Source: Escherichia coli (GTDB lineage: Bacteria; Pseudomonadota; Gammaproteobacteria; Enterobacterales; Enterobacteriaceae). From it: a DNA stretch of 64,000 nucleotides. The stretch is from the NCBI RefSeq assembly GCF_050920415.1, contig NZ_CP169309.1; one strand, given 5' to 3'. The notes beneath the pieces were generated by a model. The model was not told the DNA's origin. It made no database searches and saw nothing but the letters and a program-made list of their open reading frames with translations. Within the stretch, counting starts at the first letter, position 1; each line of letters opens with the position of its first letter. Of this stretch, positions 52,477 through 59,537 are shown piece after piece. The position numbers were made by a program, and so were the translations under genes.

Positions 52477-53648
52477 ATCGTTCGGAAAGCAATATTAAAT
52501 GCTTTTTTAAAGATTATAAATTACGTAAGAATTTTAATGTTTAAAAAAGGCTTGAGGAATAACAGGAATACTAACAATAAAGCGAAGCCGCGTCTGACAG
52601 TCAGAATGCGGCTTCGATACAGAAGCTGGAAAATCGAGCTAACTCGTTAATCTATCAGCGATACGTTGCCTTGAAAACATGGCTATGGGCACATTCAAGG
52701 ACACAAAAACCATTTTGTTCACAATGGCTGGTGGAACCACGGTTAAAACCATCACTCTATGAGGGCTTAGGGAAGTTCAGCTTTTATTGCAGATGTTCCC
52801 ATAATGGCAATAGCTTTTGTCAATGAATCGAGCCTCCTGAATAACTGAGCGGGCGATTTTATGCAGCGCGCATAGCTCCTTGATATGAGGCGATAAGCAT
52901 AGTTTTTGCGTACTGACTTGCGCTATAGTCCCCACGTTGCGGCAAAACCGCAACCGGAATTGGCGTTCCGAATTATCACGAGTGTCGGTAGCGATGTTTG
53001 CAGTGCTACTGGCGCGGCCTGCGCTCGCCCCTTCAATGGTGGCTCAGGCAGGGGCTTCGAAAGAAGCGCCGGGTCGTGATAACCGGTACGCCAACCCTGT
53101 CTGGGTCACCACCAGTGAGCCAGGCGTCTCCGGTGGTGGCGTTAACCTGCTTATCACGAAGCGGAGCGTTGCGTATGTGTCCTGTCCCTGAATTTCCCAT
53201 TGCACCAGCCTCCGCCGGAGGTATCTATGAAAATCACCGTAGAACAACCCTCAGCCAGAGAACTAGTCGATCGCTCGCGAGTCCTGGTGCATGTGATGCT
53301 CGAGCATCCTGACGATATCGGCCCGAATTATGCGTTGCTTCTCATCCTCGCCGACCAGCTACAACTATTAAGGGATGCTTTTGAAGAGGATGAGGTCAGA
53401 CGGCTTAGAGATGAGAAATTACCTCAGTAATTCTTACTGCGACCACAGCATCAGGGACAGATGTTGTGGTTGATTCCCCCACCTGCTTTTCCCTGGCTGG
53501 CTCCCCCATATTCTCTGAGGTGAATTCCATGAGCACAGCAATGGCGCGGGTTGAAAGGGCATCCCCCATCTTTCGCTGTTAAAGGTGAATAATGTGGGGG
53601 GAGTCGAGTACCTGTCAGTGTATCCCCCACATATTCCGGGTTCCACCA

Positions 53649-54950
53649 TCATTCCCCCGTATCCGGGAGCCGGATCTGTTCTCCATCGAGCACAATCAGT
53701 TGCTCGCGCAGCAGCTTCTCCAGCCAGCGCGAAAATTTCTTCTCGACGTTAATTCCCTTTGCGCGTAGATCGTCGCGCAAGAGCGCGCGGGTACAAGGCT
53801 TATTCTGGCTGATGCGTTGGTTAATACAGCGCCATAACGCCGTATGGTTGCGGGTGATATGAGGAACGTCGGGTGGTATGCCACTACTCAGTAAGTCATC
53901 GTCAGGTTGCCTAGGCTCGTCATTCAGCACCATTGAGGTCACTGGTTCGCCATCGCTATCGGTATAGATAACGACTTCCTCAAGATCGTAGGCGGTGACC
54001 TCCGGCATCTCCGCATCTTTCATCTTTGTACAACTCAGGGTGATAGCGTTGCGACGTCCCTCGCGCCTGACGTTAAACTCGGCATCCAGCGCAGCCTGAA
54101 AAGCACTTGAACCGCGTGCGCCCCGTTCCTGATCCTTACCCGAATGATGAACGATCATCATCGCTGCGCGCGTATGATACCGAATGGCGTCGCAACCCTA
54201 GATAAATGCGCCCATATCCCGCGCGGTGTTTTCATCTGAATTACCAAAACAGCGGGCCAGCGTATCGAGGATGATCAGCCGTACCGGCATTCCGGTCATG
54301 TTCTGAATGTCCTTTGCCGCCAGGATCACCTGCTCGATGCTTCCTGGAGCGGCTGGAAAGATCGGGCAGTCGACGCGAAACAGGTTATCGAGCGCCATCT
54401 CGTCATTAACGCTGAGTTCCCAGGCGCGGATCCGCCGCGATACACCGGTTCCTCCTTCTCCGGCGATAAACAGCACTGCTCCTTGATTGACTCGCCTTCC
54501 ACCCCATGACGTACCGCTTGCAATATGGCACGCCAGCGATACTGCCAGAAAGGATTTAAAACAGCCGCCGGGGCCGTAAATACTGCACAGCGTCCCGGCG
54601 GGAATAAGTCCTTTCACCAGATAATCCTGACTGGTGTTAAACCCTTCCGAGCCCCGGCGCAGCGGAAGGGTGGTGGTGAGAGTACGGTCTGATGCTGTCA
54701 TAGCTTACGACCTGAGATTTGCAGGAAGCTGCTGGTTGAACACAATCCGGGAAATGGATTCACCGTAGTGACGGTAAAATTCATCCCAGTCGCTCAATGT
54801 GGTGTCTGCAGGGAGAACCACACAGCCCTTCACTACCTCGGCAGCGGCGGTTGCATTCAGCAACCCGGTATTTTTCTCCTGACTGCAATCATTATCGCCA
54901 GCCAGGATAAGGTGGCATTCAGGCCACTGCGCCCGGAAAGCGATGGCCAC
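53649..54950 (-). pseudogene. P4 alpha-like primase/helicase remnant (Toprim + RecA-like/AAA_25 ATPase), 5-prime truncated and broken by in-frame stops
   Basis: Three same-frame ORFs: 54705..54950 (Toprim-like HLILAGDND), 54198..54701 (P-loop GPGGCFKS, Walker B LIILD) and 53649..54161 (HHSGK motif); they are separated by a TAA at 54705..54707 and a TAG at 54198..54200, and no N-terminal primase domain is present. Confidence 0.65.
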
Positions 54951-55774
54951 ATTTTTCAGGTTGTGCGCCGACAGGGCTGCAACGACTGGAAAATGATGAA
55001 GGCATGAGACCGCAAGCGCGGTTGGACACAGTGTGCTGTGCTGAACGATACCGGTGCGCCGGAGAATGCGCGGATGAGGTATGACGGGGTACGGTGATGC
55101 ACGAATGCAGCCGCCTGCTCAGGCAGGTATATCCCCACAGGTAAAATGACCTGTCCTCCGGTATCGGTTCGGTAGTGCTGGTTTCTCCTCCTGGTAAGTG
55201 AATTACTGACATCTGTTTGAGTGTCAGCCTGTTTGTTGCAGTGGATTTGCAGGCAGTAGCTGGGTTGAAGCTGATCTGCGCGCTGGCGTCACTTTCACTC
55301 GCTTACGCTCTTAAAAGTGACGCCGCGTTTTGCACGTTCAGCAGGAAGTACGGACGCAAAGCCTTCGGCAATGCCGTCCGACTTCTCTACAGCGTTCTGT
55401 CTGTCGCTACGTTTGCAACAGGGTAGCGATATAGGGTGTGGTCACCTGTATCGAGACAGGAGGTCAGTTTCAGACCACGCTTCGTTCCCTGGTTGACCGG
55501 GGGGCTGACCGCCAAAGGCGCTTCTTACAGGTCACAGTTCGTCTTAGAACAGGAAGCTTTTAGGGGTACAGCTATGAGTTGGGGATAGGGTAGATCTGGG
55601 GAAGGGGGGAAAGCTGTGAGAAATTGTTTTTAGGATTTGAAAAATTAATTTTTCTGGAAAACCCATGATTAATTTAGGCCAAGCGTATAATGTAATACGC
55701 TTAGAAAAACTTATTCCAAGTTGTTCTGGGCATACTCAACAAAAATTCTGGTGCATATAGAAGTGCAGCAGAAA

Positions 55775-57906: not shown

Positions 57907-57997
57907 GGTGTTATTATGGTTGAGAAGTGCATCTTTTTCAACCGGTTAGATAGTATATTCTAATCAGTAACTACTATTGTTATATTTTTTATATTAT

Positions 57998-59217
57998 TCA
58001 GTCGGTTACATTGTAAGCCTTCCCGAATTGTCCAATGATAACCTTCCTTCCAGTCTCAATCTGCGCATCAACAAAATCCGCCCAGGACTGAAGCATCTCC
58101 CGGCGCTGATTCAGGTACTCCGCGCGGTTGTAGACACCGCGAACGCCGCCGATCTTATGCGCGAGGCATTTCTCCACCCAGTCGGAGTTGTAGCCTTGCT
58201 CATGGAGCAATGTGCTGGCAGTACGTCGGAAGTCATGAATAACAAAATCCCTGACGTTCAGATCCAACGTACGCACCGCACAGTTCAGCGTTGTTTTGGA
58301 GATCGGGCGTCGGTGGTCGTTTCGGCTGGGGAAGACGTATGGAGAATCTCCGGCCAGAAATTTTAACTCTTCGAACATCGCCAGCGCCTGCTTTGACAGC
58401 GGAACAATATGCGGGTTATCCATCTTCATTCTTTCGCCGGGGATACGCCATTCCAGCGCGTTGAAGTTAACTTCACTCCATGTCGCTTCAATCATCTCCG
58501 ATTTACGCACCATGCAGATGATCAGCAGGTGCAAAGCCAGCTTGTGGCGTCGGTTCATATTAGAGGTGTAGATCCCCCGTAACAGGATGCCGATCTCTTC
58601 TGCTGTTAGCGCCACGTCACGGCTTGTTGCTTGTGCGATATAACGGGCCTCGATAGCGGCTGCCGGGTTGTTGAAGATGATTCCCCTGGAAATCGCATAG
58701 GCCAGCATACGTTTAAGCACGTTGCGCGTCAGTAGCGCGACGTGATCCGAACCTCGTTGTTTGATGCGGTCGAGCACGACCTGAATGTGAGCAGTTGTGA
58801 GTTCTTCGAGTTCCAGCTTCCCGATGATGGGAATGATGTCCTTCTCGATAATGCGAGTGATGTTGCGCGGATCGCGGTTACTTTTTTCAACGATATCGGT
58901 CAGCCAGCGTTGGCGAATGTTTTGACTGTCGTTGGGTCTTTCTGTTTAAGCTTTTCTTCCTGCTTTTTCTGCGCGGGATTGATGCCATGAGCAACCATTG
59001 AGCGACACTTTTCACGCCAAAGCCGTGCTTCTGCAAGTGAGAAAGCCGGGTATTCGCCCAGCGTGATCTTTTGCGATTTGTTGTCAAAGCGGTAGCGGAA
59101 ACGCCAGATTTTTCGTCCGGTGGGAAGAACTTCAATCACCAACCCGTCATGATCGGCAAGTTGCCAGGGGCGGTTTCTGGGAGTAAGTGTGCGTATTTTG
59201 GTATCTGAAAGTGCCAT
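57998..59217 (-). pseudogene. P4-type tyrosine integrase, split by a frameshift
   Basis: N-terminal ORF 58900..59217 (MALSDTKIRTLTP…, arm-binding domain) and C-terminal ORF 57998..58777 (catalytic core with HDFRRT and GVYNRAEY) are in different frames; the C-terminal frame stays open upstream to about 58910, placing a single indel near 58895..58915. Confidence 0.75.
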
Positions 59218-59537
59218 ATCTCACCTCTACAGTGTGTCCATGAGCATCCTTTCTAATAGATTGTTTAATATTGGATTATTAACGCCTTCTTTTTCACTGT
59301 GTCCATGAGAAGGCAGATTTGAGCGTTTTTTATACCTTTTTTTGTGTCCATTTGATGTGATTTTTAGCTCAAAAAATAAACAATGGCACACGGGGGATTT
59401 AAAGATGGGCACAATTCAGGACACAAAAATCGCGGATGAACCCGCACGACTATGGACGAGTATGGAAAGTAAAAACCCGCATTAACAGGCAGTTAATGCG
59501 GGTTAGTGAACGTTCACGGACGAGGATGGACTAAAAC

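Follow-up and report, generated by a model that had tools for sequence, protein, structure and literature searches.

Retron-Sen2 (St85) of Salmonella Typhimurium, which comprises STM3844 (int2), STM3845 (rcaT) and STM3846 (rrtT), has been placed by Mestre et al. in retron type II-A1 along with Ec73 and Vc81 (PMC7736814), and the gene order msr-msd, effector, reverse transcriptase (RT) has been reported for Sen2, Eco3 and Vch2 (PMC6868368). Both Sen2 and Retron-Eco9 were described as tripartite toxin-antitoxin systems in which the toxin RcaT is counteracted by its cognate RT together with multicopy single-stranded DNA (msDNA) (10.1101/2020.06.22.160168). In serovar Typhimurium, int2 is part of the retron between thdF and yidY, and Salmonella genomic island 1 (SGI1) uses the final 18 bp of thdF, that is, mnmE, as its integration site (PMC2972765). 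Here, we analyzed a window of 64,000 nucleotides (nt) from Escherichia coli contig NZ_CP169309.1 (all positions are those of the window), in which an island of ∼6.9 kb, foreign to K-12 and spanning about 52617-59564 between tnaC and mnmE, carries a retron cassette. Our results indicate that this cassette is very probably an ortholog of Retron-Sen2 (type II-A1) that was horizontally acquired as cargo of an island at the 3' end of mnmE. The feature is genuine and the retron is probably functional, yet it is no discovery: publications already cover the system, the family it belongs to, how it acts and where it sits in the chromosome.

Identity of the retron cassette

The initial annotation, made from the sequence alone, had described an intact module consisting of a structured non-coding RNA (ncRNA), an open reading frame (ORF) of 320 amino acids (aa) and a retron-type RT, and had recognised neither the effector nor the insertion site. 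The module proved intact, with Rfam matches to msr and STnc400, two intact ORFs and a YADD motif. On the other hand, both the effector and the site could be named: the former is RcaT/STM3845 of Retron-Sen2 (96% identity; equivalog match of 265 bits against a cut-off of 100) and the latter, the 3' end of thdF/mnmE, is where the int2-retron canonically sits in Salmonella. The features of the cassette are listed below.

55647..58013, minus strand: cargo slot holding a complete Retron-Sen2 cassette (promoter, msr-msd, terminator, rcaT, RT), 2,367 bp, AT-rich
57913..57941, minus strand: sigma-70-like promoter, TTGAAA-17-CATAAT, 10/12, the best promoter match in the region
57837..57906, minus strand: msr RNA, Rfam RF00170, 74.2 bits against a gathering threshold of 52
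57899-57906, minus strand: a2 repeat ACTCTTTA, pairing with a1 in the minimum free energy fold
57898, minus strand: predicted branching G, placed by the conserved UUAGC context
about 57757-57841, minus strand: msd template, with approximate ends estimated from the 85-nt msDNA-St85
57766-57794/57799-57827, minus strand: perfect 29-bp stem of msd, an inverted repeat
57749-57756, minus strand: a1 repeat TAAAGAGT
57716..57748, minus strand: hairpin with U-run, a terminator or attenuator between msd and rcaT at which the STnc400 transcript stops, from a terminator-like scan
57710-57834, minus strand: Rfam STnc400 match, 122.9 bits against 80
56710..57672, minus strand: effector/toxin RcaT, STM3845 ortholog, 320 aa, intact, its stop codon overlapping the RT start
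55775..56710, minus strand: retron RT, RrtT/STM3846 ortholog, 311 aa, intact

The ncRNA region has the organization expected of a retron, in which adjacent msr and msd are accompanied by a1/a2 repeats, msr hairpins and an msd stem-loop. Its predicted fold (-78.7 kcal/mol; z-score -10.6) is canonical: a2 and a1 pair in an 8-bp stem, msr forms two hairpins and msd a single long one. GATC occurs in both arms of the msd stem (57786-57789 and 57804-57807). Positions 57907-57735, which include a2, msr, msd, a1 and the first terminator arm, are 100% identical to Salmonella St85; with such a template, production of branched msDNA would be expected. The promoter is also identical in Salmonella, while the terminator hairpin has kept its stem and has a different loop. 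The STnc400 match consists of the msd stem-loop and the terminator hairpin, the latter being the 3' hairpin of the Rfam model. Based on this overlap, the small RNA STnc400 (the 'Gammaproteobacterial sRNA' of Rfam) appears to be the msd half of the Retron-Sen2 transcript; the papers mentioning STnc400 that were found in a literature search draw no link to this retron.

RcaT is predicted to consist of an N-terminal NDT-like domain and a C-terminal DNA-binding region. It was assigned to the NCBIfam equivalog STM3845_fam (NF038232, 'retron St85 family effector protein') with 265.4 bits (cut-off 100) and to the PADLOC model NDT_II-A with 300.5 bits over residues 5-309, and 307 of 319 residues (96%) were identical to the full-length Salmonella copy. 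Homologues of RcaT carry the precomputed Pfam family PF28093, whereas a local Pfam-A scan of the protein, using a library apparently without PF28093, revealed no significant domain. The sole relative of solved structure was the NDT-like N-glycosidase effector of Ec86 in the PDB (E 1.3e-10, residues 26-172); the motif ESPGSLVELG is conserved, and E107 corresponds to the Glu for which PDB 8qbl has Ala. In the phage collection, Pseudomonas Pf phages yielded the only homologues, which were distant (about 32% identity). It should be noted that phiR73/Ec73 was not found in this collection when it was searched with the RcaT protein.

The RT has the motifs NAQIH (residues 85-89), YADD (183-186) and VTG (234-236), in agreement with the report that NAXXH (region X) and VTG (region Y) are retron-specific besides the catalytic YXDD (PMC6868368). 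It matched NCBIfam retron_St85_RT (NF038233) with 353.4 bits (cut-off 235), and 298 of its 311 residues (96%) were identical to the full-length Salmonella copy. PADLOC gave 410.5 bits for RT_II-A and 401 bits for RT_I-A, and the closest solved structures were the RTs of the type I-A retrons Ec78 and Ec83 (E about 1e-72 to 1e-81); among solved RTs, Ec86 scored 132 bits and type I-A enzymes scored 262-276 bits, except Ec83 with 245. Both the strong RT_I-A score and the proximity to Ec78/Ec83 are explained by the RT-ncRNA module that types I-A and II-A1 have in common. Assignment to a group II intron, DRT or Abi was rejected, as the respective models scored far below their cut-offs (TIGR04416, 45.2 versus 300 bits; Drt2, 34.7 versus 390; Drt4, 21.3 versus 450).

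The gene order msr-msd, effector, RT is that of type II-A1, and RefSeq already names both proteins 'retron St85 family'. At the nucleotide level, window positions 59690-55190 were 95.96% identical to Salmonella DNA over 4.5 kb, and Salmonella contigs have the order yidC, mnmE, int, STM3845, RT, mdtL. Gene order, integrase, insertion site, and subterminal and att sequences are shared with Retron-Sen2. The differences are the E. coli host, 12-13 amino-acid substitutions in each protein, a stretch of about 2.5 kb of backbone that the E. coli island has kept and that is missing from the Salmonella copies (52713-55189: Toprim, helicase, Ash/C4, EFASI), and the integrase lesion, which is an ATG-to-ACG change of the start codon in Salmonella and a 1-nt deletion in the window.

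Other described systems are more distant. Retron-Eco9 (E. coli NILS-16) is of the same tripartite, anti-phage RcaT/RT-msDNA toxin-antitoxin type; its published identities to Sen2 are 49% for RT, 43% for RcaT and 58% for msd (10.1101/2020.06.22.160168), and the protein values of 43-49% are incompatible with the 96% identity to Sen2 seen here, so that Eco9 was rejected as the identity of the cassette. Retron-Eco3 (Ec73) is also a type II-A1 retron, having an ORF between msr-msd and RT and adjoining a P4-family integrase (PMC7736814, PMC6868368). Retron-Eco1 (Ec86, type II-A3) has solved filament structures; its effector has the NDT-like N-terminal domain and the catalytic-site motif in common with RcaT, and methylation of msDNA serves as a trigger (PMC12673091); however, its RT belongs to another clade, its effector gene lies downstream of RT and the similarity between the effectors is distant. 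Type I-A retrons (Ec78/Eco7 and Ec83/Eco4) have the ncRNA-RT module in common with II-A1 (PMC7736814), whereas their effectors are an ATPase, PtuA, and an HNH nuclease, PtuB, and not an NDT-like protein.

Origin, selection and function

We examined the occurrence of the module in 5,426 complete E. coli genomes. At megablast sensitivity, the retron was present in only one of them and the island backbone in eight. Thus, the initial annotation was right to regard the tnaC/mnmE junction as interrupted: comparison with K-12 agrees, and the segment is not a feature of most E. coli genomes. In K-12 and ∼5,400 other complete genomes, the site is contiguous or filled otherwise. In public databases, identical protein sequences recur on 72 and 103 contigs, and effector and RT belong to 90%-identity clusters whose members are mostly from Salmonella enterica. 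The E. coli contigs that carry the retron were all 99.98-100% identical and therefore represent one lineage.

The synonymous divergence (dS) between E. coli and Salmonella was 0.20 (RT), 0.10 (effector) and 0.09-0.15 (integrase), far below the value of 1.11 for the adjacent mnmE. Therefore, the island was transferred horizontally, long after the two genera had split. The ratio of non-synonymous to synonymous divergence (dN/dS) was 0.089 for RT and 0.19 for the effector, indicating that both have been under purifying selection, and the low ratio of the integrase (0.04-0.14) indicated that its inactivation is recent. The lesions of the backbone (integrase, helicase and deletions) are independent in each copy, which supports the earlier proposal of a decaying backbone with a maintained cargo.

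With regard to the host, the yidC-mnmE genes (59600-62650) were at most 98.6% identical to those of complete E. coli genomes, except for N96 (99.3%), which places the host in a divergent lineage of Escherichia. Accessions with the identical retron proteins (EGB61221 and EGE62554, for example) derive from old E. coli draft genomes, probably of cryptic clade I strains.

The mechanism proposed for the cassette is transferred from the studied Salmonella system, whereas our own analysis shows what the cassette is, that it is intact and under selection, in which genomic context it lies and that its origin is horizontal. First, the promoter (57941-57913) would drive msr-msd, and the hairpin at 57748-57716 would pass part of the transcription into rcaT and RT; we infer that, owing to this hairpin, more ncRNA than protein is made. 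Second, RT would bind msr, start synthesis at the 2'-OH of the branching G (near 57898) and copy msd into a hairpin msDNA of ∼85 nt, which would be matured by RNase H and exonuclease VII (Exo VII). For Sen2, it was found that maturation requires both nucleases and that RT confers the specificity towards RcaT (10.1101/2020.06.22.160168). Third, the RT-msDNA complex would bind and neutralise RcaT, an NDT-like putative N-glycosidase with a DNA-binding domain. Finally, phage functions that alter or destroy msDNA would free RcaT and lead to growth arrest of the infected cell (abortive infection). Known triggers of Sen2 include Dam, which methylates the stem GATC, RecE, which degrades mature msDNA, and a foreign RT, which sequesters msDNA, while prophage proteins such as RacC block RcaT (10.1101/2020.06.22.160242).

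Several points weigh against a functional Retron-Sen2 in this strain. We infer msDNA production, toxin-antitoxin behaviour and phage defence here from the relationship to the Salmonella system, and the 12-13 substitutions per protein could alter the matching of RT to RcaT or the range of triggers. At native levels, toxicity of RcaT was observed in Salmonella only in the cold or without oxygen. In addition, its biochemical target was still called unclear in 2024 (10.1101/2024.12.20.629319), and N-glycosidase/NAD(P)+ activity is documented for the distant Ec86 effector only (PMC12673091).

The retron might also be kept mainly as an addiction module that stabilises the island by post-segregational killing, with phage defence being secondary or absent. 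Published genetics do show a toxin-antitoxin system (10.1101/2020.06.22.160168), the island persists despite a dead integrase, primase and helicase, and E. coli copies that are 99.98-100% identical represent one lineage. However, excision is impossible for a chromosomal island whose integrase is dead, and such an island thus needs no addiction module. The same slot in relatives holds Rosmer, a type III-A retron and PDC candidates, which argues for selection for defence, and both triggers and blockers encoded by phages are documented for Sen2 (10.1101/2020.06.22.160242). We consider addiction as the main role to be improbable. An inert relic, intact by chance, silenced or mismatched after the transfer, would fit the decay of the remainder of the island and the rarity of the module (1 of 5,426 complete E. 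coli genomes). Such a relic is difficult to reconcile with dN/dS values of 0.09-0.19 over dS of 0.1-0.2, the absence of stops in 631 codons, an ncRNA and a promoter identical to those of the functional Salmonella copy, and the recurrence of exactly the same proteins on 72 and 103 contigs; we give it even less credit than addiction. Vertical inheritance from an Escherichia/Salmonella ancestor followed by loss in most E. coli, for which the shared site, order and flanking mnmE in both genera could be cited, was rejected on the dS contrast between the island (0.09-0.20) and the adjacent mnmE (1.11, that is, 5-10 times higher), and with an empty site intact in about 5,400 genomes and an active-looking att/int system in relatives of the island it has next to no probability.

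Boundaries and backbone of the island

We also characterized the island that carries the cassette. Its junctions were placed by alignment to the empty site of K-12 and to three related islands, namely those of Salmonella (locus L003), E. coli RM9088 (L009) and E. coli PSS-15 (L010). The following features delimit the island.

52311-52385, minus strand: tnaC
52617..52633, no strand: distal att core copy ATACAGAAGCTGGAAAA, the true left boundary, an island-borne copy of the mnmE 3' end
52685..52709, no strand: left subterminal 25-nt motif, candidate integrase arm-type site
59405..59429, no strand: right subterminal 25-nt motif, 22/25 identical to the left copy
59474..59504, minus strand: intrinsic terminator brought by the island and now downstream of mnmE, 13-pair stem with T-run
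59548..59564, no strand: proximal att core in the last mnmE codons, the true right boundary, from the repeat and the K-12/island alignments
59538-60947, minus strand: mnmE (RefSeq start at 60902)

The direct repeat at the junctions is 17 nt long, ATACAGAAGCTGGA(A/G)AA, and reads TTYTCCAGCTTCTGTAT in the sense of mnmE. The distal island end, GATTTTCCAG(C/T)TTCTGTAT, is common to the window and all three related islands. The initial annotation had bounded the island by imperfect 25-bp direct repeats; such repeats do exist (22/25), but the junctions lie at the 17-nt repeat, and the 25-nt copies sit 68 nt and 118 nt inside the island ends. As K-12 and the three islands put the junction at the repeat of the mnmE end, a target-site duplication of 25 nt was ruled out. 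The 25-nt motif (TTTTTGTGTCC..TGTGCCCAT) is present near both ends (about 70-120 nt inside) of the Salmonella, RM9088 and PSS-15 islands, and of the eight GGACACA sites in the window, seven fall inside the island. These patterns suggest that the 25-nt repeats are subterminal recombination sites of the arm type and that the 17-nt repeats are the att cores. The island-borne terminator downstream of mnmE is kept in all four islands aligned.

The region around the junctions has a history of its own. At the distal junction (52585-52633), the original mnmE terminator hairpin persists, and 19 nt between this hairpin and the att core (TGGTAAGTAACCGCGCTTA) are gone compared with K-12, a small secondary deletion. 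The tnaC-mnmE spacer (52386-52616 and 59430-59547) is a multi-use insertion point; in O157:H7 and other strains it holds a gene for a ShET2/EspL2 type III effector, about 2.5 kb extra, and RM9088 has both this effector gene and an mnmE island.

SGI1-family integrative mobilisable elements likewise target the 3' end of thdF/mnmE and adjoin the int2-retron in S. Typhimurium DT104 (PMC2972765). In a comparison of the target region, the window repeat overlaps the 18-bp site of SGI1 but is shifted upstream, and no SGI1 backbone was seen at the island of the window.

The genes for cargo, integrase, Toprim and helicase are all encoded on the minus strand and read from mnmE towards tnaC, with the order integrase ORFs, ncRNA region, 320-aa ORF, RT, Toprim and helicase; a 67-aa ORF and an 'ash family' remnant are on the plus strand. 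The whole segment had been called AT-rich, which is true of about 55500-58000 (29-36% GC) only, and the rest of the insert, including the backbone, has 51-57% GC. The backbone features are as follows.

57998..59217, minus strand: P4-family tyrosine integrase pseudogene 'int2', ORFs of 105 aa and 259 aa
55042..55172, minus strand: EFASI RNA motif beside the cargo slot, towards the backbone, Rfam RF02957, 90.2 bits against 51.2
54705..55106, minus strand: Toprim primase fragment, PHROG 2249 DNA primase, 3.2e-20
53649..54701, minus strand: RepA/AAA_25-type replicative helicase pseudogene, in-frame stop at 54198-54200
53227..53430, plus strand: 67-aa backbone ORF, WP_000705806.1, a PGAP coding sequence (CDS) present in RM9088 and S. 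houtenae
53024-53143 (PGAP) or about 52994-53191 (Prodigal), plus strand: 'ash family' pseudo-CDS overlapping the C4 RNA
53032..53116, plus strand: C4/CI-type antisense RNA, Rfam RF01695, 71.9 bits against 45
52923..52974, plus strand: c4-a1b1 target of C4-type antisense immunity, Rfam RF03163, 46.9 bits against a gathering threshold of 46.7

A broken P4-type integrase and a primase/helicase remnant had been noticed from the sequence, and the underlying lesions (a frameshift, a truncated Toprim gene and a helicase nonsense codon) could be located. In the integrase gene, a 1-nt deletion near 58911 leaves ORFs at 58900-59217 and 57998-58777; NF007246, which matches both fragments, assigns it to the P4 family. 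The gene is intact in RM9088, PSS-15 and S. enterica subsp. houtenae, and the Salmonella ortholog has the domains Arm-DNA-bind_3, Phage_int_M and Phage_integrase. In the phage collection, protein matches reached at most about 41% identity, except for a 98% match to an S. houtenae chromosomal contig filed there, which was also the sole match to integrase DNA. The helicase is covered in both halves by PHROG 2850; the RM9088 gene reads through the stop position of the window, yet has a nonsense codon of its own elsewhere, and the S. houtenae helicase is intact (350 aa). The Toprim gene lost part of its sequence through a deletion of 1.56 kb, joined over 9 bp at 55016-55024 (mapped to RM9088, L009 11089-12650), which also took out a 291-aa tyrosine-recombinase-like gene. 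The nearest match of the primase in a true phage or satellite was P4 alpha (30% identity, E 1e-13).

Among the smaller features, the EFASI motif lies upstream of the 291-aa tyrosine-recombinase-like gene in intact relatives, and the annotated Toprim CDS of the window begins inside it. In RM9088 and PSS-15, backbone positions 55016-55646 are matched at 96-97% identity. A 42-aa 'hypothetical protein' of the related islands (55387-55515) has no ATG start in the window and is probably not a gene. No family match could be found for the 67-aa ORF in PADLOC, NCBIfam or PHROGs. The 'ash family' protein call may partly reflect conservation of the overlapping C4 RNA, and a sub-threshold isrK match was observed in the region 52923-53143.

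The description as P4-like was borne out in part. The island shares with satellite P4 the integrase family, the C4/CI-type antisense RNA with Ash and variable defence cargo beside int, and its Toprim primase is related to P4 alpha. By contrast with P4, its helicase is a separate RepA/AAA_25 gene, and its intact relatives add a tyrosine-recombinase-like gene and the EFASI RNA. No match to psu, delta, sid or epsilon was detected among all island ORFs with PHROGs, NCBIfam and PADLOC, and these genes are likewise absent from the annotation of the intact S. houtenae island. phiR73, the host element of Ec73, is a complete P4-like satellite that P2 can mobilise and that resides at the selC tRNA gene, whereas the island of the window is at mnmE, is defective and lacks psu/delta/sid. 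'P4-related integrative island' is defensible, and 'P4-like satellite' is not established.

Related islands and the variable defence slot

The homology of the window to RM9088 and PSS-15 ends at 55646 and restarts at 58014, which defines the cargo slot of 2,367 bp and coincides with the AT-rich block. In PSS-15, the slot holds RmrT/RmrA (Rosmer), to which comes a type III-A retron with a PRTase effector interrupted by IS3 (L010 9929-15655); the distal part of this island and the 5' part of tnaA are missing. RM9088 has two proteins of 136 aa and 187 aa in cargo slot 1 (L009 13713-14931) and a Septu PtuA/PtuB pair distally. The two slot-1 proteins had no match in PADLOC or NCBIfam and, given the defence content of the slot elsewhere, are candidates for an undescribed defence system.

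An apparently intact island backbone was identified at the same mnmE site in S. enterica subsp. houtenae (AGRM01000003.1); this entry is a 582-kb chromosomal contig filed in the phage collection. It contains int (406 aa), RmrA, a PDC-S15-like cargo (fragment), the 291-aa tyrosine-recombinase-like gene, a 327-aa primase, the 350-aa helicase, a KAP NTPase (PDC-S20, 541 bits), the 67-aa ORF and Ash.

On the basis of these comparisons, we tentatively suggest that the elements at the 3' end of mnmE might form a coherent defence-carrying family that has not been formally described, possibly of phage satellites, of which the int2-retron would be an eroded stump. The layout of such a family may be int, cargo slot 1, EFASI, the 291-aa recombinase-like gene, a P4-alpha-like primase, a RepA helicase, slot 2 and Ash/C4, and the E. 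coli copy may then represent an intermediate stage of erosion. If the mnmE elements are indeed one family, an unknown defence system might be encoded by the two slot-1 proteins of RM9088.

With the att site and the limits of the cargo corrected, the cassette can be cloned cleanly. The locus offers little for discovery of a new retron, and its remaining interest lies in the island family and the variable defence slot. Our data indicate that Retron-Sen2 is not specific to Salmonella and has passed between Salmonella and one E. coli lineage long after the genera split. In addition, the E. coli copy retains backbone that was lost in Salmonella, which suggests that the int2-retron goes back to a family of islands whose defence slot can be exchanged.

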